Shown here: in pieces, positions 1-16,780 of the stretch
Numbering within the stretch: the stretch's first letter is position 1
Layout: each line of letters begins with the position of its first letter
NCBI GenBank assembly: GCA_016873165.1
Contig: VGXV01000054.1
Coordinates: forward strand, 1-21,078
Direction: 5' to 3'
DNA: 21,078 nt
Origin: Planctomycetota bacterium
GTDB taxonomy: Bacteria; Planctomycetota; Brocadiia; Brocadiales; Brocadiaceae
Program-made: the position numbers and the translations under genes
The notes under the pieces: generated by a model
Database searches by the model: none
Seen by the model: only the letters and a program-made list of their open reading frames with translations
Told to the model about the DNA's origin: nothing

Positions 1-2093
1 ATAAAACACCCGTTGGTTTCTTCAAAAGTAGTAATTATTCCGATACATTTGCTCGATGCAGTTTGTTTGAATAAAAATATTGTATCCGTTATTATAGAAT
101 TAATATCTATGTTCTTCATAAATGCTTCTTTTGCTTTTGCCAAATCGAACATCACCTCTATAAGCCTGTTTATTCTGCCTAATTCTTTCAGAGCAATTTT
201 TTGGAAATTATTATTAAACTCTTCATTGTCTTTTTGGTGAGGCAAAAGTTGAAAATAGGTGTTAATAGGCACAAGCGGATTCTTAATTTCATGGGCAATA
301 TTCGCTGCAAGGCTTCCTAAATATGCCAGGCGGTCTGCTTGCTGTTTTTCCGCGCGAAGTATTTTTAATTCAGAGAGGTCTGTTACTATCATCAACGTTC
401 CCAGTTTTTCCCCTTTCTCCGTCTTTAGCTTGCTCGTAGAAACTCCCACCGGTATTTTTTTATTATCTCTTTCAATAATAGCCTCAATGTCATTAATTTC
501 TATATTGCTTTTCAATGCATAGAGCAGAAAACGATATATCTCCTTGCCGAGGGCTGCAACCACTTTTTCTGTAGAATACGCATTTTTCAAACCGAGTATC
601 TTTTTCGCTTCGGTGTTCATGAGGGTCACCTTCTTTTCATCCTCAAAAACAATCACGCCGCTTTTCAAACTTTGCAGGATATTATCACGATAAATTTTTT
701 CTTCATTGAGTCTGTTATAGAGCCGCGCATTATTAATTGCCATAGTCAATTGCCCTGAAAATGCCAGAAACATCTGAATATCTTCCAATGTAAATATTTT
801 CTTGTTAATTTTTTTCCCCAGCAGAATTAATCCGAAAATATCCCCTCTCTGGTAAATAGGAATACAAATATTCACCCGCAGAGAAGCCAGAGCCTGTTCC
901 AGATTATTTTCAATTTCATTTCTCGAAAAACGATTCAATTGTTCCTGAGAAAGCACGGTTTCATTCTCCCGGAGCCAGGTTATTACATTATCTCCTTCAT
1001 TAATAACGATCTCATTCCCGACAGGGAAATTGATAGATGCTTTTAAACTATACTTTTTATTTTCATCTTTTGTCAGGATGCAAATATTTTCAATTCCGAC
1101 AGAGTCATATAAGTATTGCGCCGCATTAAGGAACAGCCCCTTCAAATCATTTATGGAAGAAAACAATACTGTTGATTCCTTCAATATTGCAGGATGGCTA
1201 TATTTTACCCTGAACAATGTTTTTTCAACATAGTATTGAATCGATTCGCGGGTATACATAAAAGTTAAAATAATCACTGCGGTGGAAACACTATTTTTAA
1301 TCGTTTCTTTGTACTCGGAAACAGGCATTAATTTGCCAAGAATGAACCCAACCGCAAAATAAATAATTCCGAGGAAAACTGAGATTACACCATATACCGT
1401 GCTCCGCTTTATGATCAGCGTTATGTCTAAAAGATGATATTTTACAATTGCATACGCGACAGCAACAGGTATCGGAATAGAAGCAAAAGAAACAAACCTT
1501 TCTACCTGCCATATTCCCGCAAGCGGAAGCAGAAAGTTTGTAACAGACCCTAAAAATAACGAGGTCGCCACTCCCAGGTACAAATATCGTATCTGCAGCC
1601 TCTTAATGCCATAATAACCCTTGCTTTTTCTATATAAAATATATAAGGAATACGCCATACACGCTGTAAAATAAAAACAAAAAACTGGAAATAAGGGGCC
1701 GTAATCAGGATGATGCGACTGGTTTTCAAAAGATACCGCCCTGACAATAAAGGGGCAAAGCGCCGCAATGGCAATGCTTATCATCAGGAACAGAAAACCG
1801 AGGATTTTGTTGATTCGACTTTCCAGACGATCCGGAAACACGCTGGAAAAAAAGAAAAAAGAAAAAGGAATGAAGGACGCCGCGCAAAAAACCAACCGAA
1901 GTCTGTAAGTTGCAAGCGCGGGATCATTTGTCTGCAATGTAAAAAAGATAAAAAAATTCCAAACGGCAAACGCCTGAGCAAAAATGCAAAACCTTCTGTT
2001 CACGACATTGGAAGGATTCTTCATGAGGACAAAGATTCCAATGCCCGCATAAAACGCCGTAATAAAAGTAAGCGCGCTTTGATTGAAATTCAT
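1..2093 (-). CDS. Sensor histidine kinase, 3'-partial (multi-TM N-terminal domain, GAF, PAS, HisKA; the ATPase domain lies beyond the window edge)
   Basis: Absent from the supplied ORF track because it has no stop in the window. My manual minus-strand translation from the ATG at 2093-2091 stays open to position 3. It begins MNFNQSALTFITAFYAGIGIFVLM and has at least 7 hydrophobic segments. A GAF-like block follows (ICIPIYQRGDIFGLILLGKK...QLTMAINNARLY), then a PAS-like block (NILQSLKSGVIVFEDEKKVTLMNTEAKKILG). The H-box LAANIAHEIKNPL is encoded at 273-311. The gene starts 10 nt after the KAS stop. Confidence 0.85.
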   Translation of the reverse strand, partial: MNFNQSALTFITAFYAGIGIFVLMKNPSNVVNRRFCIFAQAFAVWNFFIFFTLQTNDPALATYRLRLVFCAASFIPFSFFFFSSVFPDRLESRINKILGFLFLMISIAIAALCPFIVRAVSFENQSHHPDYGPLFPVFCFYFTACMAYSLYILYRKSKGYYGIKRLQIRYLYLGVATSLFLGSVTNFLLPLAGIWQVERFVSFASIPIPVAVAYAIVKYHLLDITLIIKRSTVYGVISVFLGIIYFAVGFILGKLMPVSEYKETIKNSVSTAVIILTFMYTRESIQYYVEKTLFRVKYSHPAILKESTVLFSSINDLKGLFLNAAQYLYDSVGIENICILTKDENKKYSLKASINFPVGNEIVINEGDNVITWLRENETVLSQEQLNRFSRNEIENNLEQALASLRVNICIPIYQRGDIFGLILLGKKINKKIFTLEDIQMFLAFSGQLTMAINNARLYNRLNEEKIYRDNILQSLKSGVIVFEDEKKVTLMNTEAKKILGLKNAYSTEKVVAALGKEIYRFLLYALKSNIEINDIEAIIERDNKKIPVGVSTSKLKTEKGEKLGTLMIVTDLSELKILRAEKQQADRLAYLGSLAANIAHEIKNPLVPINTYFQLLPHQKDNEEFNNNFQKIALKELGRINRLIEVMFDLAKAKEAFMKNIDINSIITDTIFLFKQTASSKCIGIITTFEETNGCF

Positions 2094-2103
2094 TCTTTAC
2101 CGT

Positions 2104-3345
2104 TCAGGAATATTTTTTTAATAAAAGCACGGAATGCGACCCCCCGACGCTATGCCCGTTTATTAATATCACATTCATACTGGCATATCTCGCAACGTTA
2201 GGAACATAATCAAGATCGCAACACGGATCAGGCTCATCCAAATTAATTGTCGGTGGAATTATTCCGTTTTTCAGACTCAAACACCCTGCCACCGCCTGAA
2301 AACCGCCGCCGGCGGCAAAAGACTGGCCTGTCATAGACTTTATCGAACTGACCGGTATACGATATGCGTAATTCCCAAAAAAAACCTTAAACGCATTGGT
2401 TTCCGCAATATCATAACCTGGAATCGCATTGCCATGGGCACAAATATAATCTATTTCTTCTTTATATACTTTTCCCTTATTTAATGCCTGTTCCATCGCC
2501 GTAATCAAGGCATTTCCACTTACGTCCGATTGCACGATCTCCTGCGCCTCGCTTGATGATGCATATGATATTACCTCTGCGTAAATATCCGCTCCCCGGT
2601 TCAACGCATGATCCAGTTCCTCCATTACCAGCGTTGCTCCGCCTTCGCTCAATACCATGCCGTCGCGATCTTTATCATACGGTCTTGAAGCCTTTTCCGG
2701 CTCACTGTTTCTTTTTGAAAGGATACCCAGAGAATTTAATGCCGACATAGGAAACGGGAAAATAGGGGCATCGGAACACCCTGCCACTGCAATATCGATC
2801 TCTCCCTGCCGGATCATCCGGAAACCCCAATTGACAACATCAAGCCCCGTGATACAGCCCGAAGATAATGTAGAATTCGGACCCGTAATTTTCAATTCCG
2901 AGCAAATGTAGCCCGCTGCCACGTGAGGTGTGAGTTCCGGGGCTGTAAGCCTGCTTACGGCTTTTAATCCGCCATCCAAAAATCTTTTATATTGCCTCTC
3001 GTATATTTCGTTCTCCGCTCCTATTGTGGTGCCAAAACACACACCACATCGGTCTCTGTTTTCCGCTCCCAAATCTATACCGGAATCCTGCACCGCCATC
3101 TTCGCCGTCGCTACGCCAAAATGGGTAAACCGCGCGCTTCTTTTCACATATTTTTCCGCTAAATATTTGCACGGATCAAAATTTTTTACCTCACCGGCAA
3201 TGTGTGTATGAAGAAAAGACGGATCAAATGCGGCAATACGCTTAATACCCGATCTTCCGTTCGCCAAAGCATCCCAGTATGCCTTTTTTCCGTTGCCGTT
3301 AGGCGCCAATATTCCCAGTCCTGTAACAACAACACGTCTTTCCAT
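2104..3345 (-). CDS. Beta-ketoacyl-ACP synthase, FabF/FabB (KAS I/II) family, divergent paralog
   Basis: 413-aa ORF. It shows RVVVTGLGILAPNG at the N-terminus, the active-site Cys in LSSGCITGLD, the first catalytic His in ICAHGNAIPGYD, and a KSMTG motif. The C-terminus reads PPTINLDEPDPCCDLDYVPN, like FabF PPTINLDNPDEGCDLDFVP. The second catalytic His is Gln (see findings). Confidence 0.9.
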   Translation of the reverse strand: MERRVVVTGLGILAPNGNGKKAYWDALANGRSGIKRIAAFDPSFLHTHIAGEVKNFDPCKYLAEKYVKRSARFTHFGVATAKMAVQDSGIDLGAENRDRCGVCFGTTIGAENEIYERQYKRFLDGGLKAVSRLTAPELTPHVAAGYICSELKITGPNSTLSSGCITGLDVVNWGFRMIRQGEIDIAVAGCSDAPIFPFPMSALNSLGILSKRNSEPEKASRPYDKDRDGMVLSEGGATLVMEELDHALNRGADIYAEVISYASSSEAQEIVQSDVSGNALITAMEQALNKGKVYKEEIDYICAHGNAIPGYDIAETNAFKVFFGNYAYRIPVSSIKSMTGQSFAAGGGFQAVAGCLSLKNGIIPPTINLDEPDPCCDLDYVPNVARYASMNVILINGHSVGGSHSVLLLKKYS

Positions 3346-3429
3346 CTTGCACTTTAAATACTACCATTAGGTTTTTATGAAACGTTATACTTAAATTTAT
3401 TGTAACTCTTCAGCGTAAATGCGACACGG

Positions 3430-3605
3430 CTCTTTCCCAAGTTCCGGCTTGGGAACGCACGTGCCCGGGAAGCTTCTGCTTCTCATAACAGGAAGCAAAG
3501 CTTCCTTCACAATTGCGTTCCAAAGCCAGAGTTTTGGAACGAAAAGCCCCTTCGACTCCGCTCAGGGTGACATGCTTTTTCATATTACCATGCTGAGCGA
3601 AGATT
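3430..3605. repeat. Cluster of four consecutive palindromic stem-loops (REP-like intergenic element)
   Basis: Hairpins paired by hand. (1) 3434-3455: ttcccaag/cttgggaa, 8 bp. (2) 3468-3505: ggaagcttctgcttc/gaagcaaagcttcc, 14 bp with one bulge. (3) 3517-3540: gttccaaa/tttggaac, 8 bp. (4) 3550-3602: cgctcag...catg/catg...ctgagcg. They fill the gap between the radical SAM stop (3613) and the KAS start (3345). Confidence 0.7.
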
Positions 3606-3612
3606 TATTTGA

Positions 3613-5397
3613 CTATACAATAAAATTCTTCCTTGCTAAATATTTGCTGTAGTCATTTATTTTCCGATATGATTCTTCCAAAAATGTGTAATTTGTGCTC
3701 AATAACGCCATGTCACTTTTTATTTTAAACTCCTCAAGGCCTTTCTTACCCAAAAAACCCGCACTTCTCGCGGCAAGACAATGTTCATCCGAGACATTTA
3801 CCGTATACCCCATTTCCCTCACCTTTTTCTCCAGTAATCCCGTCATTTTAAGCATATCCAGAAATTTTATTCCGTTTAAAGATATATTGAGTTCCGGCCA
3901 CGTGCTCGGGTCTTTTGTCAGTTCATACTCATAGCGCAAAAGCGTCTGAAGATAATCTGCAGGCAATTCAAATCCATATTTGCCATGCTCCAGATGCCAC
4001 ATCGTTCCCGGCAGCGGCGCTCCGGGCGTAATAAGAACGGAATCAGGCATACAATTTTCATTTTTTAGTCTCTGCAGGAAAAATAAATTTTCCTCCAATA
4101 CTTTTTCATGAGTTATCCCGTTATCGGATGGCAACGGGCATGGATAAATAAAACTTACACCCACATCCAGGTGTTTCCCGGTATTATACGACGCCTGTTT
4201 CAATGCCTTTATTGTATAATATATATCTTCAACAGAACTCCCTTTTCCCATTACCTGCGAAAGAATATGATCATTTGCCGCTTCTGCCCCGAGAAAAACG
4301 GCTTTTAACCCGGATTGCATCACGAGTTCGTAATCTGCCACTAATGCATCCCATTTTTCTTTTGCCCTATCTTCCGCACGAACAAACATTGAATATTCTA
4401 TTTTTACGCCTTCCTTGATCAATGCGTTAGCGATTTTTTTGCTCAAGGAAACCGGTGTTGTGGACCCTGCAAATCGAAACAGGCCAATATCCATCTCCCT
4501 GATCGTATGTTTTATCTCATCCAGAATTTTCACAATATCCCCGGACTGATATTTCCCTGTAATTTTCGGATGCGTGCAAAAACTGCACTTTCCGTAATAG
4601 CAGCCTGAGGACTCTGTTATTACGGCAATATCCACCTTTCCATCCTCCTTTTCATACAGGGGAAAGTCCTTTAATCTTAACGGAATCCTTTTAACCGGAG
4701 ATTCCTTTACCTCGTTCACATCTCGGTAAATCAGATTACATATTTTCCCCTCACGAGCAAGTTCCGTTATTTTATTAATCACACCGGTTTTTTTATACCC
4801 CTGTGAATACATCTCCCTTACTATATGAATAAGCTTTACAAGAGTTTCTTCTCCTTCGACATCAATGCAAAAATCAAAAGGACTTTTCTCCAGTGTGCTC
4901 ATTTTAAACTGATTCACCTGCGGACCGCCTGCAATCACGAGCGTTTCAGGACTTATCTCATTTACTCTTCTTGTTAATTCCTCAGAATACAAAAATCTAT
5001 CCCCCAGCCATGTTTTGATCCCCAGAACCTTTACCTTGTGACAACGTACTCTTTCCGCAATCTCCTCAATATATGCTTCCATCTTCCTTTTCAGAATGCC
5101 GGAAAGTTCATTTTGAAGATTATTCCATTCCCGCACAAAAGGCGTTATTTCCTCTTTGCTTTTTCCGCCAAAAATAATTTCACACAATTCAGACAACCGT
5201 TGCGAAAGCTTATTTGCGGTAAATGACGTATAAAAATTAATTTTTGCCGGATCCTCGATAATAAAGTCAAATCCTTCGTTTTTGCATGCTCGTGCCAGAA
5301 CCCCTATGCCATTTTCCTTGAAACAGTCGCTCACAGAATAGGCTTTCCCCATAAATGAATTCCATAAGAGAAGATCCTTGCTTTTAAAATCAGTCAT
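3613..5397 (-). CDS. Radical SAM protein with an N-terminal B12-binding-like domain (class B-like)
   Basis: 594-aa ORF with RBS GGAGA 7 nt upstream of the ATG. The N-terminal Rossmann-like region contains LVIAGGPQVN. The Cys cluster is ITESSGCYYGKCSFCTHP (C266, C271, C274). Downstream radical SAM core-like strands include FRFAGSTTP and AVFLGAEAAND. There is no C-terminal SPASM-type Cys cluster. Confidence 0.8.
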   Translation of the reverse strand: MTDFKSKDLLLWNSFMGKAYSVSDCFKENGIGVLARACKNEGFDFIIEDPAKINFYTSFTANKLSQRLSELCEIIFGGKSKEEITPFVREWNNLQNELSGILKRKMEAYIEEIAERVRCHKVKVLGIKTWLGDRFLYSEELTRRVNEISPETLVIAGGPQVNQFKMSTLEKSPFDFCIDVEGEETLVKLIHIVREMYSQGYKKTGVINKITELAREGKICNLIYRDVNEVKESPVKRIPLRLKDFPLYEKEDGKVDIAVITESSGCYYGKCSFCTHPKITGKYQSGDIVKILDEIKHTIREMDIGLFRFAGSTTPVSLSKKIANALIKEGVKIEYSMFVRAEDRAKEKWDALVADYELVMQSGLKAVFLGAEAANDHILSQVMGKGSSVEDIYYTIKALKQASYNTGKHLDVGVSFIYPCPLPSDNGITHEKVLEENLFFLQRLKNENCMPDSVLITPGAPLPGTMWHLEHGKYGFELPADYLQTLLRYEYELTKDPSTWPELNISLNGIKFLDMLKMTGLLEKKVREMGYTVNVSDEHCLAARSAGFLGKKGLEEFKIKSDMALLSTNYTFLEESYRKINDYSKYLARKNFIV

Positions 5398-5469
5398 ACA
5401 TCACTCTCCGGACAGAAATAATCTCTCATACAAAAGCGCTCTCCCTTTGAATATTGCTTTTACTTATTC

Positions 5470-6846
5470 TTAATTTGCAATTTGCTCAATCCCGTATTTT
5501 TGCATCTTGTAATGAATCACGCTTCGCGTAGTGCCAAGGAGCTTTGCAGCCCTTGATTTTACGCCGCCTGCTTTCTGCAAGGCATGTTCTATCAATTGTT
5601 TTTCAATACGCGCTATTTCATCCTCGAGACACACCTTTTCATTTTCATTTGATTTCGCTTTTTGCAAATTGCAAGGAATTCCCATAATCTCTGCCGGCAA
5701 ATGTTCGGGAAGCAATACCGGTTCATTTCCATAAAGGGCTATTGCCCGTTCCAGCACGTTTTTCAATTCTCTTACATTTCCCGGCCAATGATATGCCAGC
5801 ATCAATTCCATCGCCTCACGGGAAATAAATTCGCTTTTTGCGTGGCATTCCTTTCTGTATATTTTATAGAAGTGTTCTACCAACTGTGATATGTCTTCCG
5901 GCCTCTCCCTGAGGGGGGGAATGTAGATAGGAACGACATTAATCCGGTAATAAAGATCTTCCCGGAAAAGGCCTTCTTTGATTTTTGCTTCCAAATCCTT
6001 ATTTGTTGCGGCAATAATACGAACATCCGCTTTAATGAGGGAATTCCCCCCGATACGGGAAAACTCCTTTTCCTGCAAAACCCGCAGCAATTTCGATTGC
6101 AAAAGAAGGTTTATCTCGCTTATCTCATCCAAAAAAATAGTCCCTCCTTCCGCAATTTCAAACTTCCCCTCCTTTCTCTCATACGCACTGGTGAACGATC
6201 CCTTCTCATGGCCGAAAAGTTCCGATTCCAGCAGCTCTCCCGCCAAATTAGGACAGCTTACCACAACAAAAGGCCTGTCTCTCCTGTCGCTGTCAAAATG
6301 AATCGCGCGCGCGACCAATTCTTTTCCCGTTCCGCTCTCTCCACGCAAAAGCACCGTGGCATTGACACGGGAAACACGCGAAATGGTATCGATCACCCCC
6401 TCCATTACTTTACTATGCCCATGAATTATTCTGTCCACAAAATAATTCCTGCATTCAGACCGCAAGTAACGTACTTCTCTGCTTAAATTTCTGAATTTTA
6501 ATGCCTTTTGAATCGCTAATTTAATCTCCTCAACGCCAAATGGCTTTACAATATAATCCAATGCGCCCAATTTCACCGCGTCAACGATTGACTTAACATC
6601 GTGCACCGCAGTCAGAATAATCACGCCTATTTCCTGATTTATTGGCTGCAATCTCTTTAATAATTCCATACCACCCATTTCAGGCATTCTCAAATCCAGC
6701 AACACAAGATCTATATGTTCCCTGTCTATTACCTGCAAAGCCTCTTTGCCGCTATTTACGCCAATAATCGAATAGCTTTCCTTTAAAACAAAACGCAGGG
6801 ATTCTACGACACTTTGTTCGTCATCAACAATTAATATGGTTTTCAT
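5470..6846 (-). CDS. Sigma54-dependent response regulator (NtrC/AtoC family: REC, AAA+, Fis-type HTH)
   Basis: 458 aa. REC motifs: ILIVDDE, LVLLDLRMPEMGG, KPF. AAA+ motifs: Walker A GESGTGKE, Walker B IFLDEI, sigma54-contact loop GSFTSA, and REDLYYRI. C-terminal HTH: SRAAKLLGTTRSVIHYKMQKYGI. Confidence 0.93.
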   Translation of the reverse strand: MKTILIVDDEQSVVESLRFVLKESYSIIGVNSGKEALQVIDREHIDLVLLDLRMPEMGGMELLKRLQPINQEIGVIILTAVHDVKSIVDAVKLGALDYIVKPFGVEEIKLAIQKALKFRNLSREVRYLRSECRNYFVDRIIHGHSKVMEGVIDTISRVSRVNATVLLRGESGTGKELVARAIHFDSDRRDRPFVVVSCPNLAGELLESELFGHEKGSFTSAYERKEGKFEIAEGGTIFLDEISEINLLLQSKLLRVLQEKEFSRIGGNSLIKADVRIIAATNKDLEAKIKEGLFREDLYYRINVVPIYIPPLRERPEDISQLVEHFYKIYRKECHAKSEFISREAMELMLAYHWPGNVRELKNVLERAIALYGNEPVLLPEHLPAEIMGIPCNLQKAKSNENEKVCLEDEIARIEKQLIEHALQKAGGVKSRAAKLLGTTRSVIHYKMQKYGIEQIAN

Positions 6847-8968
6847 TGCACATTATATCCGGCAGCAACACATTAAAACAACTGCCGCAATTCTCCTCCG
6901 TTGAGAAATAAATAAAACCATCATATTCTTCGATAATTCTCTGCGAGATAGAAAGTCCAAGCCCGACATTATGCGTCTTTGTGGTAAAAAAGGGAAGGAA
7001 GATTTCTTTGATATTTTCTCTGCTTATTCCGCATCCCGTATCTTGTATCGATACTTCGACGTAATTTTCAGGTTCTTCGGACGGCATTCTGATATTATAA
7101 AATTTTGACATGACTCCGCTGGAATTTATGGAATGAAACATCTCCTTAATTCTTGTATCATCCAATACCAATCTGTTAAGTTTTATTGTTAATGATCCTC
7201 CCTCTTTCATTGATTCCAGCGCGTTAAGAATTATATTGGAAAACGCTTCCTGCAGTTTTTCACTATCCCCATTTACAAAGGCTGCGTCGCCTGAAAATTG
7301 TTTTATTAATTTCACACGTAATTTTTCCACTTTGTCTGCATGGAAATTTAATGCCTGATCGATTGCGAACCTGACATCCACCATCCTCCTCGTAATATTG
7401 CCGTTTTCTCCCAAAATTGTTAACTTTTTTACCATGAGGTCGAGTTTATTTATCTCATTTTGCGCCACAGGGAAAAATTGCCCCTCAAATTCCTTTTCTT
7501 CGTGTTTTTCGGGAAATAAATCAACGAACGTTTTCACCGCCACAAGGTGATTCTTGATATAATGCGCCATATTTTTGCTTAACATATGATAAAACGCCTG
7601 ATTTTCCAGCGTTTTCACCCGGGACTCCAGTTTTTTCACCTCGCTCAAATCGGTAAAAACCATAATTGCCCCAAGCAAGTTATCCTTGTCAGATAATAAA
7701 GCGGTGCTCACTGCAAATGTAGCGTGCGTCACCGGATGTTCAATTTCATACACCTCATATATTTTTTTCTCCTTCAGCGTCCTTAAAATAATATCGGCAA
7801 AGAGAGAACCTATATATTTAACATCCTTTCCTAATATATTCTGCGGGGAAGTATGCAGCATATTTGCCGCGCCTTTATTGAAGGTATTTACTTTATAGCT
7901 GCAATCGATTGCAATCACACCGCACGGTATATTTTCCAAAACATTCTCGTTATGAATTTTCCTCAGATTCACTTCCTGATAAAGAATGGCGTTCTCCAAG
8001 GCCATGCCTATGTATCTTGACAACATTGTAAGCAATTCAATATCTTCATCATTGAATTCCTTCCCTGTTATTTTATTTCCCAGTGAGATGGCACTGATAA
8101 GGCTTCCCTTTACAAAAACAGGGACACAAAGTTGTGCTTGTAATATATTAATTTCCTTCTGAACCCTTATTATTTCCCGTCTTTTTAGGTTATCTGTAGC
8201 AATCTTTTTTTCAAAAATATCCCTTTTTAATATCTGATGCTTTTTCGATAACCACAACATCACCCCATCGTGCGCACTGAAAGAGATATTATTTGCTGTA
8301 GTTTCATCAATCCCTATGCAGCGAAACGGCTTGCATATACCATCTTCTTTGTCTGTCAATAAAAAAACTATCTTGCCTACTCTAAATATTTCAGACAATG
8401 CTTCCACTATCAGGTCAACAAGTTTTTTAAGATCATGGACATACGCCAATGCCTTTGAAAATTTTTGAAAGACCTCTTTATACGCAAGCTGATAATTTTC
8501 TCTCATGCTTGTTTGCCGGGCATAATTATGCTCCATTGTTCCGTTGCCCTTGCCATTCGAACTGAAATGCCGCATTTGTGTTTGAATAAATCCGATCTCT
8601 TTTTTCAGTTCCTGCCTCTCTAACGCCCGCTTAACGGCATATTGCACTGCTTCGCTTTTCAATGGTTTTTCAAGAAATTCATACGCTCCGATTTTTATCG
8701 CTTCCTGCACTAATATCGGCTGGGCAGAGGGCACAAGGGCAATAATTGTCGGGTCCGCGTTTGTTTGACGAAAAAAATCAAACATTCGATTTGTTTCTTC
8801 GGTTTTCATGAGAATATCCAAAAAAACGACATCAATTTCCTGATTCAAAAATAAATGGAACGTATCTTCTGTGTTTTTGGCAAAAAGGAGGGAAAAATCT
8901 CTCTGAAAAGATTTTTTTAGAAGATTCTGCATCGCATCATCTTTTGAAATTAATAGAAAGGAATGCAT
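6824..8968 (-). CDS. Hybrid sensor histidine kinase (N-terminal REC, GAF, PAS, HisKA, HATPase_c)
   Basis: 714 aa with RBS GGGGAGA 5 nt upstream of the ATG. The REC-like N-terminus has DVVFLDILM and EKPL. A GAF-like block (VPVFVKGSLISAISLGNK) and a PAS-like block (VLENIPCGVIAIDCSYKVNTFNKGAANML) follow. The H-box is NMAHYIKNHL. The ATPase G-boxes are QDTGCGI and GLGLSISQRII. Its stop overlaps the response-regulator start by 23 nt. Confidence 0.88.
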   Translation of the reverse strand: MHSFLLISKDDAMQNLLKKSFQRDFSLLFAKNTEDTFHLFLNQEIDVVFLDILMKTEETNRMFDFFRQTNADPTIIALVPSAQPILVQEAIKIGAYEFLEKPLKSEAVQYAVKRALERQELKKEIGFIQTQMRHFSSNGKGNGTMEHNYARQTSMRENYQLAYKEVFQKFSKALAYVHDLKKLVDLIVEALSEIFRVGKIVFLLTDKEDGICKPFRCIGIDETTANNISFSAHDGVMLWLSKKHQILKRDIFEKKIATDNLKRREIIRVQKEINILQAQLCVPVFVKGSLISAISLGNKITGKEFNDEDIELLTMLSRYIGMALENAILYQEVNLRKIHNENVLENIPCGVIAIDCSYKVNTFNKGAANMLHTSPQNILGKDVKYIGSLFADIILRTLKEKKIYEVYEIEHPVTHATFAVSTALLSDKDNLLGAIMVFTDLSEVKKLESRVKTLENQAFYHMLSKNMAHYIKNHLVAVKTFVDLFPEKHEEKEFEGQFFPVAQNEINKLDLMVKKLTILGENGNITRRMVDVRFAIDQALNFHADKVEKLRVKLIKQFSGDAAFVNGDSEKLQEAFSNIILNALESMKEGGSLTIKLNRLVLDDTRIKEMFHSINSSGVMSKFYNIRMPSEEPENYVEVSIQDTGCGISRENIKEIFLPFFTTKTHNVGLGLSISQRIIEEYDGFIYFSTEENCGSCFNVLLPDIMCNENHINC

Positions 8969-8997
8969 TGCTGTCTCCCCGACAAAAAAGTCTAATT

Positions 8998-9014
8998 ATT
9001 AAATTAATGTGCCA
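8998..9014 (-). promoter_or_regulatory. Candidate sigma54 promoter (-24 perfect, -12 degenerate) for the kinase operon
   Basis: The minus strand reads TGGCAC-ATTAA-TTTAAT, against the consensus TGGCAC-N5-TTGCW. The -24 hexamer is perfect and lies about 45 nt upstream of the ATG at 8968. The conserved GC at -12 is missing. Confidence 0.25.
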
Positions 9015-9024
9015 AAATATACCA

Positions 9025-9071
9025 TTTTGAATAATTTTATCAACTGTTTTATTGTTTTTGAATAATTTTAT
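9025..9071. repeat. Two identical 16-bp direct repeats (TTTTGAATAATTTTAT) with 31-bp periodicity
   Basis: Exact copies at 9025-9040 and 9056-9071, directly upstream of the candidate -24 element on the minus strand. An IHF-like TATCAACTGTTTT lies between them. Function unknown. Confidence 0.6.
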
Positions 9072-9137
9072 ACACTTTCCTGTGAAATCACATGAAAATC
9101 AATTATATGCACCTTTTTATTTACTTATTATAGCGAT

Positions 9138-9153
9138 ACAAGTTATGACTTGT
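9138..9153. promoter_or_regulatory. Palindrome ACAAGT-TATG-ACTTGT, possible activator binding site (UAS)
   Basis: 6-bp perfect inverted arms. It lies about 125-140 bp upstream of the minus-strand TGGCAC, a typical enhancer distance for bacterial enhancer-binding proteins. Confidence 0.35.
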
Positions 9154-9267
9154 TTACGTTCCATTTTTTCAAAGGTACAATAACTGCGTACGTAATAGGA
9201 GACAAATATAAGGTTCCCGAAATATTTTTTGTAGCAAAAAAACTCATCAAAGGGGGGGGGCTAAACA

Positions 9268-9495
9268 TTGGCAGATATTGATTCTTCTCATTCTGAACAA
9301 AAAACAGATACCAATAATTCGCAAAGGACGCTATGTCCTTTTTTTGAATGCCCACCTAGTTCTCATTGTTATTGTGTCAATGTAAATAGCCTGAAGATCC
9401 CCAATTTATTACACTATTGCGCAAAAAATTTTACCCGGTGCGACATTTATACTTCAAATCATACCGTATTGTATTCAAAGAAAGAATGCCGTTAA
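9268..9495 (+). CDS. Possible small Cys-rich protein (75 aa, TTG start), hypothetical
   Basis: ORF-track entry. The Cys/His pattern is CPFFEC-x5-HCYC-x17-C-x6-C. A G-rich tract 8 nt upstream could act as a Shine-Dalgarno sequence. It has the same orientation as the downstream REC/HD-GYP gene, 98 nt away. I recognise no family, so it could be non-coding. Confidence 0.3.
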   Translation: MADIDSSHSEQKTDTNNSQRTLCPFFECPPSSHCYCVNVNSLKIPNLLHYCAKNFTRCDIYTSNHTVLYSKKECR

Positions 9496-9593
9496 TATCG
9501 TATACATTATGCGCAAAATACCCTTCCGAGGCTTTCACTTCAGCCCTCTGCTAAAAAACAAATTCGTTTACAAAACCCCCTGGAGTTATTGCT

Positions 9594-10583
9594 ATGAACA
9601 AAATGGTACATCTTGCAAATATACTTGTAATTGATGATGAAATAGGGATAAGGGAATCGCTGCGGATAATTTTTCTTGATACGTATGAGGTGCATCTCGC
9701 CGCAAATATCGCAGAGGCGACTCTGTTTTTGAAAGAAATTGACATTGATATCGTTTTTCTTGATATAAAAATGTCGCATGAAAACGGCCTTGACTTCCTC
9801 AAAACCATAAAAACCACGTATCCAACAATTCCTGTTGTTATAATAACGGCATTTCCCTCATCACAAACTGCAATTGCCGCGCTAAGAAATGGGGCATTTG
9901 ATTATATTGTCAAACCGTTCGATTACGCGGAAATTCTTGAGACGGCAAAAAGGGCCTTAAATCAACGTTCAAGCGATGCCGATAAGGAAAATATGATTTA
10001 TTCCTTAAGAAAGGCTGTCCATCAGAACTTTTTTTCCACTACGGAAGCACTGCTGCATGCCATCGATGCTAAAGACTCCTATACCGCAGGGCACTCCAAA
10101 AGGGTATCGTTTTCGATTGCTTTTATTTCGGAAAAACTGGGAATGAACACTCTTCAGACTGAAACGCTCCGATACGGAGCTTTTCTTCATGATATCGGAA
10201 AGATTGGTGTGAGTGACTTTGTTCTGACAAAACCAGGCCCCCTTACAGAAGATGAGTTTGAAATGATAAAACGACACCCGGATATAGGATATAAGATCCT
10301 GGAGCCTATACATTTCTTAAAGGATAGTTTATCAATTGTACGGCATCATCATGAATGGTATAGCGGAGAAGGATATCCTGACGGGTTAAAAGGCGATGAA
10401 ATACCCTTTGAGGCAATGGTTCTTTCTGTAGTGGATGCATATGACGCATTGACAACAGACAGGCATTATCGTATAAAATATTCACATAAAAAGGCTCTGG
10501 AAATTATATCAGAGAGAATAAATGTACAATTTGCTCCGTCTATAACCGAAAAAATTCTTTCTATTATCGATAAATACCATTAA
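9594..10583 (+). CDS. Response regulator with an HD-GYP domain (RpfG-type c-di-GMP phosphodiesterase)
   Basis: 329 aa with RBS GGAG 9 nt upstream. REC motifs: ILVIDDE, IVFLDIKM, VVIITAF, VKPF. HD-GYP motifs: HSKRV, FLHDIGKIGV, RHHHEWYSGEGYPDGL. Confidence 0.92.
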   Translation: MNKMVHLANILVIDDEIGIRESLRIIFLDTYEVHLAANIAEATLFLKEIDIDIVFLDIKMSHENGLDFLKTIKTTYPTIPVVIITAFPSSQTAIAALRNGAFDYIVKPFDYAEILETAKRALNQRSSDADKENMIYSLRKAVHQNFFSTTEALLHAIDAKDSYTAGHSKRVSFSIAFISEKLGMNTLQTETLRYGAFLHDIGKIGVSDFVLTKPGPLTEDEFEMIKRHPDIGYKILEPIHFLKDSLSIVRHHHEWYSGEGYPDGLKGDEIPFEAMVLSVVDAYDALTTDRHYRIKYSHKKALEIISERINVQFAPSITEKILSIIDKYH

Positions 10584-10607
10584 TTGAACACCCCTGGTAA
10601 TGCCCGA

Positions 10608-11954
10608 ATGAAATTGCAAAAAAATATCTTTGAAAAAATTTTATTTCCCCTTTTCCTATTACTTCCTGTTTATTTCCTTATTCATTTTTCCGCAGAAACA
10701 AATGTTTCGGCGCAAATAGCATCCGGATTGCATAATCCTACATTTTGCGCATCCGGGCTTGCGCAGGGAAATGCTGTTGTTGCCCGCACGCATGACGCTT
10801 CTGCCGTTCTGTTTAATCCTGCCGGTCTTACTCAATTAGAAAGAGCCGAAGTTTCTGTCGGCGCCAGTTTTGTAACTCCTTTTATCGAGTATCACGGCAA
10901 TGGCATAAGCGAGGATATGGACACGCAAATAAATACGATACCAAACGTTTATTATGCCTCTCCCATAATAAACAACACATTAGCCGCAGGCATCGGCATA
11001 ACCGTTCCTTACGGACTCAGCGGAGAATGGGAGGAAGATGGGTTTTCCCGATATGTTGTTACCGATTTTTATCTGCAGGTAATCAATATTAATCCGACAA
11101 TTACCTACAAACCGTTTTCATTTCTTTCAGTCGGGGCGGGTTTTGATTACTACACAACAGAATTTGACCTGGAAAGACGCCTCAATCTCGGAGCGCTGAA
11201 CTCTTCACTAACGGGAACTGCAATAGACCCTTCGACGTCTGAGGGATATCAGGATATCGATGATATGCACGGCGATGGTTACGGATATAATGTTGGCATA
11301 CTCTATAACATCACTCCCCGCCACAGTATCGGCGCTTCGTTCCGGAGCAAGGCTGATATTGATGTAAAAGGCTCTATGAAGTTTTTTAATTTAAGCGGCG
11401 CAACTGCCGGAATCTTTGGAGCAGAAACATACTCCACCCGCGCAAAAACAGATACTACTATTCCGGAAATGCTTACCTTTGGTTACGCATATCATCATGG
11501 AGAGCGATGGAGTATGGAGGCGGATATCCAGTGGACAAACTGGTCACGTTTCGATGATCTTAGATACAGTTTTGATCCGACAAATATCTTGCTGGAATCC
11601 GACAATACCGACGAAAGAAACTGGCATAACACACTCGGAGTCGCATTGGGCGGAGAATATCAGATTAATGCCGCCCTGAAAGCGCGAGGGGGATATTCTT
11701 TTCACGAAACTCCCGTCCCCAGCGATACATTTGAACCCTCAGTTCCACAGGGAAGCAGGCATGGAATTCATCTCGGCGCAGGGTATGGTTGGGGAAAATA
11801 TTTAAACAAAGTTGTGGATGTTGCTTACAGCGCAATATTTTACGAGGACAGAACAATAAACAATTCTGTTGGAGATGCCTCTTTAGGGCCTATTGACGGG
11901 ACGTATGAAATAATTACCCATATTCTTGCCGTCAATTTCACCTACAAATTCTGA
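10608..11954 (+). CDS. Outer-membrane transport protein, OMPP1/FadL/TodX family
   Basis: The ORF track starts at TTG 10584. I prefer ATG 10608, which gives MKLQKNIFEKILFPLFLLLPVYFLIHFSAETNVSA|Q, a signal-peptide-like N-terminus. The FadL-type N-terminal region is SGLAQGNAVVARTHDASAVLFNPAGLTQL. The body has alternating beta-strand character and ends in the barrel signature NFTYKF. Confidence 0.85.
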   Translation: MKLQKNIFEKILFPLFLLLPVYFLIHFSAETNVSAQIASGLHNPTFCASGLAQGNAVVARTHDASAVLFNPAGLTQLERAEVSVGASFVTPFIEYHGNGISEDMDTQINTIPNVYYASPIINNTLAAGIGITVPYGLSGEWEEDGFSRYVVTDFYLQVININPTITYKPFSFLSVGAGFDYYTTEFDLERRLNLGALNSSLTGTAIDPSTSEGYQDIDDMHGDGYGYNVGILYNITPRHSIGASFRSKADIDVKGSMKFFNLSGATAGIFGAETYSTRAKTDTTIPEMLTFGYAYHHGERWSMEADIQWTNWSRFDDLRYSFDPTNILLESDNTDERNWHNTLGVALGGEYQINAALKARGGYSFHETPVPSDTFEPSVPQGSRHGIHLGAGYGWGKYLNKVVDVAYSAIFYEDRTINNSVGDASLGPIDGTYEIITHILAVNFTYKF

Positions 11955-13633: not shown

Positions 13634-14063
13634 GTCTCCAACCTCATTGCATCGTGATGAAATTAATGTGTTAAGAAATAAAAATTTGACATTTTCAACA
13701 AAAATATTTTTCACAAAGTCTGTATGCCGCTTTATATAAGGCTTTGGAATACGTTTTCCCATTGTCCTACTCTTGTCATTTTCTCTGCGCCCTGCAGTGA
13801 ACGGTTTACCCTTCCGACTCGTACGGGCACTGTTATTTTGTCCTTCTTCCCGATCTTGTTTTCCGTTCCTTCCAGATGAGATGATAGGAAATGGTTTTTT
13901 TAGCTTGAGGCGATATTAACCTAAAAATGAAAAAGATGTCAAGTTTTTAAATTCATTCAGCTAAATTGAATATTAAAAAAGGGTGCAGATGGAAAGAATG
14001 GCGCGAAACGATAGGAGTATTATCTGTGGATGGGTAATTTGCAGCAAATTCCTATTTTTTATG

Positions 14064-14290
14064 TGGAATACCCGATTAATAAAGCACTGAAAGCGCGAGG
14101 GGGATATTCTCTTCACGAAACTCCCGTCCCCAGCGATACTTTCAAACCATCGGTTCCGCAAGGGAAGCAGGCATGGGATTCATTCCGGCGCAGGGTATGG
14201 TCGGGGAAAATATTTAAACAAAGTTGTGGATGTTGCTTACAGCGCGATATTTTACAAGGACAGAACAATAAACAATTCTGTTGGAGATGC
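14064..14290 (+). pseudogene. Degenerate duplicate of the 3' end of the FadL-family gene
   Basis: It aligns by eye with 11653-11878 at roughly 90% identity (about 20 mismatches). One extra base near 14160 breaks the frame. Compare INKALKARGGYSLHETPVPSDTFKPSVPQG with INAALKARGGYSFHETPVPSDTFEPSVPQG. Similarity ends abruptly at GGAGATGC, 18 nt before the tusA-like stop. Confidence 0.8.
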
Positions 14291-14308
14291 GGTTTTCTTT
14301 GGAGCTTC

Positions 14309-14539
14309 TTATTTCACTTTTTTCACAAATACGTGAATTTCTCCTTCTTCCTCCTTTATCTCTAAAAGCTCATTTCCCGTACTGTTGCACCACGAGACAA
14401 TGTCCTTTTTTATCCCTTCATCCGTAGCTATTATCTCAAGTATTTTGCCGGGTTTTATTTCGTTCATCTTGCCGGCAGTTTTAAAAATAGGCATTGGGCA
14501 CATAAGCCCGTAACAATCCAACGTTTCATCTGCTTTCAT
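14309..14539 (-). CDS. tusA: TusA/SirA-family sulfur carrier protein
   Basis: The CPxP motif sits in LDCYGLMCPMPIFKT, and the length is typical of the family. ATG 14539 gives 76 aa (MKADETLDC...). The ORF track starts at an upstream TTG, 14566. Confidence 0.85.
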   Translation of the reverse strand: MKADETLDCYGLMCPMPIFKTAGKMNEIKPGKILEIIATDEGIKKDIVSWCNSTGNELLEIKEEEGEIHVFVKKVK

Positions 14540-14585
14540 TGGTTTTGACCCTATCTTTACCTTCAATTAAAGTTCATCATTACAG

Positions 14586-15026
14586 TTAAGGATGAAAATC
14601 CGGTTCGTGATGATGATCATCATGCGAATGTGTTTTCTTTTTCTCAAGACCTTTTCCCGTTGTCTTCTTTAAATAATCGTCAATTGCACCCTCAATTGCT
14701 TCTTCCGCCAATACGGAGCAATGCATCTTCGCGGGCGGCAAACCGCCTAATGCCTCCGCAACCGCCTTGTTGGTAAGCTGTAATGCTTCATCAAGAGTTT
14801 TTCCTATAATCATTTCCGTAGAAATACTGCTTGTGGCAATCGCCGCGCCACAGCCAAATGTCTTGAATTTTGCATCTACAATGACATTATCTTTTACTTT
14901 AATCGACATTTTCATAATATCGCCGCATGCCGGATTTCCCACCTCTGCAACACCATCTGCCTCAGTAATTTCTCCCACATTACGCGGATTTGCAAAATGA
15001 TCCATTACCTTTGCGCTATACTGCAT
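14586..15026 (-). CDS. iscU: Fe-S cluster scaffold IscU/NifU N-terminal-type, with a His-rich C-terminal tail
   Basis: Motifs: NPACGD, FKTFGCGAAIA and LPPAKMHCSVLAEEA (all three Cys ligands, plus Asp and His). The tail is KKKTHSHDDHHHEPDFHP. Confidence 0.95.
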   Translation of the reverse strand: MQYSAKVMDHFANPRNVGEITEADGVAEVGNPACGDIMKMSIKVKDNVIVDAKFKTFGCGAAIATSSISTEMIIGKTLDEALQLTNKAVAEALGGLPPAKMHCSVLAEEAIEGAIDDYLKKTTGKGLEKKKTHSHDDHHHEPDFHP

Positions 15027-15041
15027 AGAAAACTCCTTATT

Positions 15042-15596
15042 TCAAAATATATCTTTTAATTCTATTTTTAACCCTTTTAAAGAAGGCGACTCAAGGGTAT
15101 CGGTTTTAGAATACGTAGCATGAAGCGGATAAATACACTCCTTCAGGATATGAACTTCTATTTCTTTCTCTTCCGGAATCACTATCCAGTATTCCCTTAC
15201 GCCGAATCTTGCATAAAGCCTCTTCTTCTGCACCATATCCCGGTAAACACTGTATTCTGAGAGAATTTCTATCACAATATCCGGCGCACCCTGTATATTT
15301 TTTTGACCGATAATGTTCAGTCTGTTTTTTGAGATAAAAAAGATATCCGGATGGACTACATTTTCTTCGTCAAAATATACATCGCACGGAGCATAAAGTG
15401 TTTTTCCAAGGTCATTTCTTAAAACAAAATCTTTTAACCGGCTATAAAGTTCCGACGAGACTAATTGCTGTTTAGGGACAGGGGATGGAGTCATGAGCAG
15501 TTCTCCGTTAATGAGTTCATACCACTTGTCATCTGGAATTTTTAAATAATCTTCGTATGTATACTTTTTCTTTTCTACGATAAGAGTCGATGTCAT
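15042..15596 (-). CDS. Uma2-family (DUF820) putative endonuclease
   Basis: 184 aa. Matching segments: YELINGELLMTPSP, VVHPDIFFIS, GAPDIVIEILSEYSVYRDMVQKKRLYARFGVREYWIV. These fit the Uma2 pattern ELI-GE...PD...GAPDLVVEILSPS...D...K...YA..GV.EYWIVDP. Confidence 0.85.
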   Translation of the reverse strand: MTSTLIVEKKKYTYEDYLKIPDDKWYELINGELLMTPSPVPKQQLVSSELYSRLKDFVLRNDLGKTLYAPCDVYFDEENVVHPDIFFISKNRLNIIGQKNIQGAPDIVIEILSEYSVYRDMVQKKRLYARFGVREYWIVIPEEKEIEVHILKECIYPLHATYSKTDTLESPSLKGLKIELKDIF

Positions 15597-15607
15597 ACCG
15601 CACCTCG

Positions 15608-16780
15608 TTAAAAATTATTTTTCCGATTATATAAAGGCGACATTTGTCGGAGGCGTTCGACAATGGGCGGCAATTTTTCCAGGACGTATTTCACGTCGTT
15701 CTCGGAATTATCAATCCCCATACTGAAAAGCACGGTTCCCTGAGCAATCGCCGCATCAACACCTGTGGCCATTATAACATGTGATGCCTTCAACGAACGT
15801 GAGGTGCATGCAGACCCGCTTGATATTGCAATCCCCTGCATATCCAAAAACAACAGCACAGACTCGCCTTCAATAAATTCGATACAGATGCTCAGATGTC
15901 CCGGAAGCTTGTTTGCCGGATGCCCATTTACATATATATTGCTTATTTTCTTCAACAGTCCTTCGCACAACATATCTCTTAGTTTCCGTACATGTTCCAG
16001 CCGTTGCGGCATTTCAGTTTTTGCCAATTCGGCAGCCTTTCCCATGCCCACAATTCCAATAACATTCTCGGTTCCGGCCCTTCTTCCTCCCTCCTGAACC
16101 CCGCCTTCTATAAAAGGCATAATCCTTATCCCCTCTCTCACATAAAGAGCCCCGATTCCTGTCGGGCCGTAGAACTGGTTCGCAGACATGCTTAACACGT
16201 CAACAGGCATCGTTGAAACATCTATTGGAACATTCCCCGCCGCAGCTACGGCATCCGTATGAAAAATAATATCCTTTGCCTTAACAATTTCCGAAATTTC
16301 TCTGATAGGTTCAATAGTTCCGATTTCATTGTTGGCAAACATTATTGATGCCAATATCGTTGTCGGTTTAATTGCGCTTCTTACGTCATCAGGGTGCACC
16401 AATCCGTATTTATCAACGGGCAAATAAGTTATTTCGTATCCTGATTTCTCTAGTGATTTCAAAGGATTGAGAATGGAAAAATGTTCTATCTCTGAGGTAA
16501 TGATATGGTTGCCCTTCTTTTTATTCGCGGCAGAGATTCCTTTTATCGCAAAATTGTTAGCCTCCGTGCCGCTTGCTGTAAAAATAATTTCATTCGCTTT
16601 TGCATTGATAAGGCTTGCCACATTCTCCCGCGCAATTCTTATCGCATCATTTGTAATTTTTCCAAATTGATGCAGGTTTGAAGGATTGCCAAACCCTTCT
16701 TTTAAAAATGGAATAATTGCCTCTCTCACGTGCGGATGCATTGGGGTGCCTGCCGCATTATCCATATAAAGTTTTTCCAT
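15608..16780 (-). CDS. nifS: NifS/IscS-like class V aminotransferase-fold protein (cysteine desulfurase homolog lacking the PLP lysine)
   Basis: 390 aa. Motifs: YMDNAAGTP, FTASGTEANN, SEIEHFS, FHTDAV, GGRRAGTENV and the active-site loop SSGSACTS. The usual S-x-H-K-x-x-GP-x-G motif reads SANQFYGPTG (see findings). Confidence 0.9.
   Translation of the reverse strand: MEKLYMDNAAGTPMHPHVREAIIPFLKEGFGNPSNLHQFGKITNDAIRIARENVASLINAKANEIIFTASGTEANNFAIKGISAANKKKGNHIITSEIEHFSILNPLKSLEKSGYEITYLPVDKYGLVHPDDVRSAIKPTTILASIMFANNEIGTIEPIREISEIVKAKDIIFHTDAVAAAGNVPIDVSTMPVDVLSMSANQFYGPTGIGALYVREGIRIMPFIEGGVQEGGRRAGTENVIGIVGMGKAAELAKTEMPQRLEHVRKLRDMLCEGLLKKISNIYVNGHPANKLPGHLSICIEFIEGESVLLFLDMQGIAISSGSACTSRSLKASHVIMATGVDAAIAQGTVLFSMGIDNSENDVKYVLEKLPPIVERLRQMSPLYNRKNNF

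Follow-up and report, generated by a model that had tools for sequence, protein, structure and literature searches.

Circuits based on fatty-acid-derived signals include CqsA/CqsS with the sigma54 regulator LuxO in Vibrio, and RpfF/RpfC with the HD-GYP regulator RpfG in the diffusible signal factor (DSF) system of Xanthomonas. In anammox bacteria, the published candidates for ladderane lipid biosynthesis include Kuste2803, a B12 radical S-adenosylmethionine (SAM) enzyme, and Kuste2805, a β-ketoacyl-acyl carrier protein (ACP) synthase (KAS) devoid of the active cysteine; Cluster I (KustE3603-3608), conserved across Kuenenia, Brocadia, and Scalindua, is the accepted candidate. We analyzed a 21,078-nucleotide (nt) stretch of DNA from a planctomycete of the family Brocadiaceae (contig VGXV01000054.1 of assembly GCA_016873165.1), referred to below as the window, in which genes encoding a KAS and a cobalamin-type radical SAM enzyme are surrounded by genes encoding two-component regulators. 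In a preliminary description of this DNA, the two enzymes had been proposed to form a module dedicated to an unusual acyl or lipid modification, and the ladderane candidates had been mentioned as a lead.

These genes belong to a module spanning several phyla, the core of which is a KAS subfamily hard-wired to a sensor kinase with seven membrane helices (7TM kinase, HK2), usually accompanied by a new family of cobalamin radical SAM enzymes. The module appears to be undescribed, as no description of this pairing was found in the full-text literature, which was incompletely covered. All the parts come from known superfamilies; the KAS subfamily, the cobalamin radical SAM family, and the system-level arrangement conserved over several phyla are the new elements. 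The reading which we favor, but hold only tentatively, is that the module is an ancient self-contained circuit pairing the synthase and the receptor of a modified acyl metabolite, possibly quorum-sensing-like, which is not involved in ladderane synthesis.

Organization and conservation of the module

One genome per GTDB species was scanned, yielding 80 loci with relatives of the radical SAM enzyme; the window proteins were mapped by tblastn and the open reading frames (ORFs) were clustered. Clade A includes Kuenenia hertensis, Brocadia, Jettenia, Loosdrechtia, Wunengus, Anammoxibacter, and further Brocadiales, and clade C includes Omnitrophota, Ratteibacteria, Elusimicrobia, and uncultured bacteria. 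K. hertensis is the closest named genome, the radical SAM enzyme, KAS, and HK2 being 82, 91, and 83% identical to those of the window, respectively, which therefore stems from a Kuenenia-like anammox organism within the Brocadiales. In clade A, the genes encoding a FadL-type channel and a response regulator with an HD-GYP domain (RR-HD-GYP) diverge from a series consisting of a first histidine kinase (HK1), a sigma54 response regulator when there is one, the radical SAM enzyme, the KAS, and the 7TM kinase. In clade C, rpoN is followed on the opposite strand by genes encoding a REC-histidine kinase and FadL, and then, divergently, by those encoding the radical SAM enzyme, the KAS, the 7TM kinase, a REC-PAS histidine kinase, the sigma54 regulator, and the RR-HD-GYP. 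The clade-C proteins are 26–31% (radical SAM enzyme) and 40–47% (KAS) identical to those of the window, and the domain architectures are the same.

The gene order has been kept in nearly all the Brocadiales genera sampled, and the module occurs at more than 40 independent loci in several phyla. Among the loci with enough flanking sequence, the KAS gene follows the radical SAM gene in 22 of the 23 clade-A loci and in all 14 clade-C loci, and two-component regulators flank the pair in both clades, in keeping with what the preliminary description had suggested. The KAS gene is in turn followed by the 7TM kinase gene in 21 of 22 clade-A loci (with gaps of 3–14 nt, and one of 134 nt) and in 11 of 11 clade-C loci (from a 14-nt overlap to a 3-nt gap, and one gap of 538 nt). 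KAS relatives showing 46–57% identity in metagenome lineages (L085, L089, L091, L092, and P0236) are also paired with a 7TM kinase, at one place without the radical SAM gene. Since the pair recurs in these relatives, once without the radical SAM enzyme, the KAS and the 7TM kinase can be taken to be the invariant core of the module. The other components are somewhat more variable: the sigma54 regulator is present in 16 of 25 loci in Brocadiales and 9 of 16 in clade C (many of these loci being truncated), and FadL in 15 of 21 and 11 of 12, respectively. The RR-HD-GYP is syntenic in 19 Brocadiales loci and also occurs in the clade-C modules. HK1 orthologs are located upstream of the radical SAM gene in Brocadiales, and a kinase with the same architecture comes after the 7TM kinase in clade C.

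In the window (Table 1), the five genes originally described are co-directional, all on the minus strand, and separated by tight junctions, the sizes of which agree exactly with those given in the preliminary description: HK1 and the regulator overlap by 23 nt, and the gaps are 72 nt between the regulator and the radical SAM gene, 267 nt between the latter and the KAS gene, and 10 nt between the KAS and HK2 genes. The full length of HK2 in the identical contig L001, from a JGI metagenome, is 863 amino acids (aa). The module is larger than these five genes, however, since it also includes the divergent RR-HD-GYP gene and the fadL gene directly contiguous with it, and therefore extends to position 11954.

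Table 1. Position of the module components and associated features in the window.
Feature	Position	Strand	Domains or basis
HK2, HisKA_7TM-GAF-PAS-HisKA(-HATPase) kinase, C-terminus cut by the window edge	1..2093	-	PF16927, PF01590, PF00989, PF00512
KAS, FabF-like, distinct subfamily, 413 aa	2104..3345	-	PF00109 + PF02801
Intergenic spacer with palindromic insertion, 267 nt	3346..3612	.	Inverted repeats
Class B (cobalamin-type) radical SAM enzyme, 594 aa	3613..5397	-	PF02310 + PF04055
Sigma54 response regulator, NtrC/AtoC-type, 458 aa	5470..6846	-	PF00072, PF00158, PF25601, PF02954
HK1, REC-GAF-PAS-HATPase hybrid kinase, 714 aa, first gene of the operon	6824..8968	-	Pfam
Sigma70-like promoter upstream of HK1	9016..9043	-	Promoter scan, 10/12 matches
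RR-HD-GYP response regulator, divergent from the operon	9594..10583	+	PF00072, PF13487, PF01966
FadL/TodX-family outer-membrane channel for hydrophobic compounds	10584..11954	+	PF03349, E 7.6e-74

None of the acpP, fabG, fabZ, fabI, and fabD genes was detected in the window, where all the ORFs of at least 140 aa were annotated, and tblastn searches with two ACPs gave no match there. The KAS is therefore a lone condensing enzyme within the window, as previously stated, but this does not hold for the family as a whole. Eight Brocadia loci carrying the radical SAM gene (L012-L015, L021, L034, L058, and L065) and the truncated L059 show an insertion between the sigma54 regulator and the radical SAM gene, which encodes a ketosynthase (KS) resembling a chain-length factor (CLF; Ala/Ser/Phe triad), a canonical KS, and an ACP. 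In L065, the KS/CLF genes are at 6988-9576 and the ACP ORF precedes the radical SAM gene. This insertion amounts to a second system of the KS/CLF type in anammox bacteria, separate from the ladderane Cluster I.

The 267-nt space between the radical SAM and KAS genes, said earlier to be filled by hairpins, was indeed found to contain inverted repeats: a pair of 45-nt arms (73% complementarity), a 12-nt pair, and a 10-nt pair, which are nested and form an insertion of about 220 nt. The corresponding gap measures about 40–50 nt in the orthologous loci (about 45 nt in K. hertensis, L005). The palindromic element occurs as a single copy in the window and nowhere else but in the identical contigs L001-L004. 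The gap contains no predicted terminator-like site, and no Rfam family matched in a scan of the window. The element looks like a small insertion resembling a miniature inverted-repeat transposable element. A 57-aa ORF called in the gap was rejected as a gene and is probably spurious, since it sits in the palindromic insertion, which is missing from the orthologous loci.

Other genes adjoin the module in some lineages. In Omnitrophota and Ratteibacteria (L069-L084, e.g., L078 19982-21007), a small EF-Tu-domain-2-like ORF and then mreB-mreC-mreD come after the HD-GYP regulator gene; in L081 (e.g., 2851-3510), the RR-HD-mreBC block has been relocated to the opposite flank of the module and still adjoins it. 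In L001, the mlaD, mlaF, and mlaE genes involved in phospholipid ABC transport (13851-16194) lie to the left of the window and are convergent with the 7TM kinase gene. Mla genes were found at the module only in the window lineage and K. hertensis, and the other genera do not have them there; because they are confined to these two Kuenenia-like loci, they were not counted in the module.

The rest of the window holds a β-lactamase/penicillin-binding protein-like gene (PF00144; 12368-13537), the local G+C content of which peaks at 0.547 as compared with about 0.40 in the window, suggesting that the gene is of foreign origin. Beside this gene in L001, an ORF for a HicB-like antitoxin was called. 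A gene of the Uma2 family (putative restriction-endonuclease-like; 15042-15596) is located between those encoding an IscU/NifU scaffold (14586-15026) and a cysteine desulfurase (15608-16780).

The condensing enzyme and the radical SAM enzyme

The window KAS scores 147 bits against PF00109 and 86 bits against PF02801, and it belongs to the KAS I/II superfamily: its score with the broad KAS II subfamily model NF005589 (400.5) is above the cutoff (387). It scores 412.8 bits with the FabF equivalog model TIGR03150, which is below the cutoff (493.75); its best PDB matches are FabF proteins (about 320 bits). In the alignment with the solved FabF, the nucleophilic cysteine (GCITG), the first histidine, and the lysine are retained. 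AHGTSTP is replaced by AHGNAIP, the second catalytic histidine by glutamine (KSMTGQ), resulting in a Cys-His-Gln triad, and NSFGFGG by NGHSVGG, where Phe398 is changed to His and the gatekeeper Phe400 to Val (FabF numbering). The window KAS shows neither the Cys-His-His triad nor the HGTSTP motif or the GFGG gatekeeper Phe typical of FabF. This alignment, together with an active-site table covering 55 KAS, bears out the presence of a non-canonical catalytic motif pointed out in the preliminary description.

In a neighbor-joining tree, the module KAS form a single clade apart from the Escherichia coli FabF, the canonical Brocadia KS, and the CLF-like proteins; with its score below the equivalog cutoff and its derived active site, the window KAS is not a housekeeping FabF. 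The residue at the position of the second histidine is Gln in most Brocadiales and Asn in all the clade-C loci. It is again His, by reversion, in six Brocadia loci, and these sequences are confined to loci with the KS/CLF and ACP insertion (6/8). The derived traits common to the module KAS are a conserved His at the Phe398 position and the loss of both threonines of HGTSTP (Thr305/Thr307). The Cys-His-Asn/Gln triad serves decarboxylative condensation in KAS III and the chalcone-synthase enzymes, from which we infer that the module KAS is probably still a condensing enzyme, the substrate pocket of which has been altered.

A housekeeping FabF paralog lying by chance beside an unrelated radical SAM gene, between regulators, would account for the NF005589 score and for the FabF structures being the best PDB matches. 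Such a coincidence is hardly conceivable: it is refuted by the synteny maintained across phyla, with translational coupling, and both the sub-cutoff equivalog score and the separate clade with its derived active site speak against it, as does the absence of fab genes and ACP from the window.

The partner of the KAS passes the thresholds of the two domains defining class B radical SAM enzymes (PF02310, 36.9 versus 32.1; PF04055, 34.5 versus 29.5). Its cluster motif is CX4CX2C (C266/C271/C274) instead of the canonical CX3CX2C, as expected from the preliminary description of a B12-domain protein with an unusual motif. These three cysteines are invariant in the alignment of 19 relatives, the distant ones showing CX3CX2C or CX5CX2C; since only three cysteines are invariant, there is no auxiliary cluster. 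The protein falls outside the characterized families, all its NCBIfam scores being far below the cutoffs: 77.1 versus 481 for the BchE anaerobic cyclase (TIGR02026), 68 versus 600 for PhpK, and 58.2 versus 360 for TIGR04072 'rSAM_ladder_B12'. It has a conserved C-terminal domain of its own, about 170 aa long. The AlphaFold2 model is confident (pLDDT 93.5), and the first structures retrieved with Foldseek are TsrM and OxsB (E ~1e-16, TM 0.5–0.6, 13–15% identity), followed by AprD4 and MiaB; OxsB is also the best match in the PDB sequence-profile search (48.5 bits). The clade-C enzymes obtain their highest scores with two methyltransferases, PhpK and rSAM_ocin_1, and with the radical SAM protein ApyD, which acts on ribosomally synthesized and post-translationally modified peptides. 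On the basis of these scores, we propose that the enzyme most likely C-methylates an unactivated carbon of an acyl chain.

Further relatives of this enzyme (clade B, 29–37% identity) were found in Latescibacterota, Omnitrophota, SAR324, Negativicutes, Nanoarchaeota, and others. They are not associated with a KAS, which occurs nearby in only 1 of 24 loci; their genes adjoin those of AMP-dependent acyl ligases and FeeM-type N-acyl amino acid synthases. Some of these loci also encode HD-GYP regulators, kinases, SAM methyltransferases, LolE/DUF1302 transporters, and RND exporters, and one relative (P0083) is fused to a methyltransferase. In the Negativicutes (L052-L063, including the cultured Sporomusa acidovorans and Anaerospora hongkongensis), genes for a PAS histidine kinase and for a FeeM-like N-acyltransferase with a fused cyclic-nucleotide-binding domain stand ahead of the clade-B gene. 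A second B12 radical SAM enzyme of about 460 aa is encoded in L085 (10288-11679) and L091 (2623-3996), which resembles the hopanoid C-3 methylase HpnR (about 255 bits, cutoff 650); its assignment to the Kuste2803 family was rejected, as it scores only 66–75 bits against TIGR04072. In L032, another radical SAM ORF of similar size (467 aa) comes after the KAS gene. The fact that the relatives adjoin acyl-AMP ligases and FeeM synthases and that some modules recruit extra acyl enzymes points to a fatty-acyl substrate as the common denominator of the family. This is the most coherent reading of the gene neighborhoods, and it supports the original idea of a specialized acyl chain.

The Brocadiales origin of the window, the resemblance of a fab-like gene paired with a radical SAM gene to the published candidates, and the addition of a KS/CLF-like pair and an ACP in some Brocadia might all suggest that the module serves ladderane-lipid biosynthesis or remodeling specific to anammox bacteria. 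The lead did not survive the following comparisons. Omnitrophota, Ratteibacteria, and Elusimicrobia carry this module too, with unchanged domain architectures. No orthologs of the radical SAM enzyme, KAS, and 7TM kinase were found in K. stuttgartiensis or Scalindua among 5.8 billion proteins and the GTDB species genomes, searches which did return orthologs in most Brocadiaceae genera. The 90%-identity clusters holding the K. hertensis proteins have a single member each, so that no K. stuttgartiensis copy is hidden in them. The score obtained with TIGR04072, a lipid-biosynthesis model which we assume to derive from the Kuste2803 family, is far too low, and the window KAS retains the active cysteine which is lacking in Kuste2805. 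The identification of the Brocadia KS/CLF pair with the Cluster I proteins amxFabF2/amxFabFmut was also rejected, since the pair scores lower against 9s5h, presumably the structure of the amxFabF heterodimer, than against ordinary FabF. The module genes do not show the distribution expected of ladderane genes, i.e., presence in all ladderane producers and in them only. With no orthologs found in K. stuttgartiensis and Scalindua and with modules in non-anammox phyla, a ladderane role is very unlikely.

Regulation and possible function of the module

The regulator-rich layout and the coupling of the KAS with a 7TM kinase are those of fatty-acid-derived signaling systems, which is why we tend toward a synthase-plus-receptor circuit. 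The adjacency and overlap between the KAS and 7TM kinase genes are conserved, and for only one or two acyl-handling enzymes the module encodes two or three kinases along with two response regulators and an outer-membrane channel. In the scheme proposed, the FabF-derived KAS, with its KAS III-like Cys-His-(Gln/Asn) triad, would extend or condense an acyl thioester, an unactivated carbon of which would be modified, most likely C-methylated, by the cobalamin-type radical SAM enzyme. The hydrophobic product would pass the outer membrane via FadL, and the seven-helix kinase encoded right after the KAS would read either the product or the resulting membrane change. This kinase and the REC-GAF-PAS kinase would then feed the sigma54 activator, acting on transcription, and the HD-GYP regulator, acting on cyclic di-GMP (c-di-GMP). 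We infer the substrate, the chemistry of both enzymes, the sensing of the product by the 7TM kinase, and the preference for a signaling over a structural role from gene content and family resemblance.

The sigma54 regulator is composed of REC, AAA+ (sigma54), and HTH_8 domains, as is the case in sigma54 activators, with a GAFTGA loop reading GSFTSA. The best NCBIfam models of the kinase and regulator are AtoS and AtoC, both below their cutoffs. The HD-GYP response regulator combines REC and HD-GYP domains and shows the motifs HDIGK and HHEWYSGEGYPDG; it is a predicted c-di-GMP phosphodiesterase. The preliminary description placed the enzymes in a private sigma54 circuit. The regulators are certainly conserved in the module, but no sigma54 promoter was detected with GG-N10-GC-type scans in any intergenic region of the window, K. 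hertensis, or L024. The TGGCAC-N5-TTGC search gave 14 hits in the window versus 15.9 expected, the GG/GC-anchored scan gave only intragenic matches in the window, and a TGGCAC at 9000-9014 was discarded as it lacks the -12 GC and K. hertensis does not share it. HK1 is preceded instead by a sigma70-like promoter (TTGATA, 16-nt spacer, TG-TATATT), which is conserved in K. hertensis; a private sigma54 circuit therefore cannot be demonstrated from the window DNA. HK1 has a sigma54 promoter 13–185 nt upstream in Brocadia, Jettenia, Loosdrechtia, and Wunengus (e.g., TGGCACTATAATTGCA in L021 and TGGCACAAAAGTTGCT in L017); the sigma70-like site of the window is likewise upstream of HK1, as is the sigma54 promoter in Brocadia, Jettenia, and Loosdrechtia, but nearer to the start codon. 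A NifA-like TGT-N10-ACA upstream site (L005, L078) was dropped for want of a convincing enrichment, its density being 0.38/kb in intergenic and 0.24/kb in coding DNA, with only 15 intergenic hits. The 625-nt region between the divergent operons also contains a G9 homopolymer tract (9252-9260), a possible slipped-strand site.

A conserved sigma54-like element precedes the RR-HD-fadL genes in Brocadia (TTGGCACAAGAARTG), in Loosdrechtia and Jettenia (TGGTACAAAAAATGC), and in L024 (TGGCACAAAAGCTGC), and in clade C, where the sigma54 gene (rpoN) belongs to the neighborhood, fadL has a perfect sigma54 promoter (TGGCACACTTTTTGCA) in L071, L078, L080, and L081. Sigma54 activators frequently control FadL/TodX/TbuX channels for fatty acids or hydrocarbons. 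These promoters, along with the AtoS/AtoC-like scores, albeit below the cutoffs, are what would be expected if the module took up and assimilated an exogenous hydrophobic compound, which the kinases would detect, FadL would import upon sigma54 induction, and the radical SAM and thiolase-fold enzymes would transform. It seems improbable that this is the case, since acyl-CoA/ACP ligases, dehydrogenases, hydratases, and thiolases of the degradative type are missing from the module, and its KAS II-like enzyme has kept the condensing cysteine and the first histidine intact. In addition, the radical SAM, KAS, and kinase genes stand behind sigma70-like promoters in both clade C and the window, and are not obviously induced.

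Alternatively, the module might ensure membrane-lipid homeostasis in the manner of DesK/DesR-Des, the 7TM kinase sensing the thickness or fluidity of the bilayer while the KAS sets the chain length and the radical SAM enzyme adds methyl branches under anoxic conditions. We regard this as unlikely, but it is the main rival reading and has to be taken seriously, as a membrane-embedded sensor is encoded right after a chain-elongating enzyme, some modules include an HpnR-like lipid methylase, those of clade C abut mreBCD even after the rearrangement in L081, and MlaDEF adjoins the module in the window-lineage contigs; moreover, the FabF of E. coli is a thermal-response enzyme. On the other hand, homeostasis leaves unexplained both the sigma54-controlled FadL of clade C and the HD-GYP regulator. 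A KAS devoid of the ACP/malonyl-contacting threonines and of the second histidine looks specialized rather than suited to bulk fatty acid synthesis, the other partners of the radical SAM family are FeeM N-acyltransferases and exporters, and the Mla adjacency is limited to two Kuenenia-like loci.

The synthase-plus-receptor reading meets with difficulties of its own. The putative chemistry, from substrate to product and ligand, is deduced from family resemblance. The lack of an ACP, a reductase, and a thioesterase in the window leaves the release of the product unexplained, and methylation is not assured, since the nearest structures to the radical SAM enzyme include the non-methylating OxsB and AprD4. 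Several Brocadiales clusters have no sigma54 regulator, and the window, K. hertensis, and L024 show no sigma54 promoter as a target for the activator. Lastly, a 7TM kinase with lipid enzymes, in a clade-C module abutting mreBCD, would suit membrane homeostasis equally well. The more far-reaching version of this reading, i.e., a hitherto unrecognized family of lipid-based cell-cell signaling systems in most anammox genera and in Omnitrophota, Ratteibacteria, and Elusimicrobia, in which a signal made by the KAS and radical SAM enzyme (e.g., a methyl-branched or β-keto acyl compound) would pass through FadL to a 7TM receptor with sigma54 and c-di-GMP outputs, is put forward with marked reserve, and we doubt it more than we believe it.

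Implications and comparison with known systems

If the product is a signal, the module would stand for a new quorum-sensing chemistry in almost wholly uncultured lineages, relevant to anammox aggregation and c-di-GMP, which are important in wastewater technology. The signaling outputs could then control aggregation in anammox consortia, and K. stuttgartiensis, where no copy of the module was found, would lack such control. If the product is a membrane lipid, the module would provide an anaerobic route to modified fatty acids equipped with its own fluidity sensor. The Cys-His-Gln/Asn variant of KAS II is an enzymological curiosity in either case, and a tempting but wrong ladderane candidate has been removed. 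Like the module, the published ladderane candidates are fab-like genes adjoining radical SAM genes in anammox genomes, but they belong to other protein families than the window radical SAM enzyme and KAS.

The KAS shares with FabF/KAS II the two-domain thiolase fold, the nucleophilic cysteine, the first histidine, and the lysine. It differs from them in having Gln (Asn in clade C) as the second histidine, HGNAIP, His398, and Val400 in the window protein, and in being encoded outside any fab operon, next to a 7TM histidine kinase gene. An amide in the place of the second histidine (Asn in clade C, Gln in the window) is reminiscent of KAS III and chalcone synthase, to which the mechanism might be equivalent; the fold and sequence are nevertheless of the KAS I/II type and not of the FabH/CHS type, so this likeness would be convergent. 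The radical SAM enzyme has the N-terminal B12-binding Rossmann domain and the radical SAM barrel of the class B enzymes TsrM, OxsB, PhpK, BchE, and HpnR, but it is distinguished from them by CX4CX2C, its own C-terminal domain, and the low identity with the TsrM and OxsB structures (13–15%).

Among the systems in which a membrane kinase is associated with a lipid enzyme, the DesK/DesR-Des system of Bacillus subtilis also has a multi-pass membrane kinase encoded beside a lipid-modifying enzyme. This enzyme is a desaturase, whereas those of the module are a KAS and a radical SAM enzyme, and the module has two or three kinases, both a sigma54 activator and an HD-GYP regulator, and a channel in the outer membrane. 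In CqsA/CqsS-LuxO and Rpf, as in the module, the synthase gene adjoins that of a multi-pass membrane kinase, and the outputs pass through a sigma54 activator (as in the case of LuxO) or an HD-GYP regulator (as in that of RpfG); the signal of the module would also be hydrophobic and acyl-derived. The synthases are quite different, however, CqsA being pyridoxal phosphate-dependent and RpfF a crotonase, whereas the module combines a KAS with a B12 radical SAM enzyme and has a sensor of the HisKA_7TM type.

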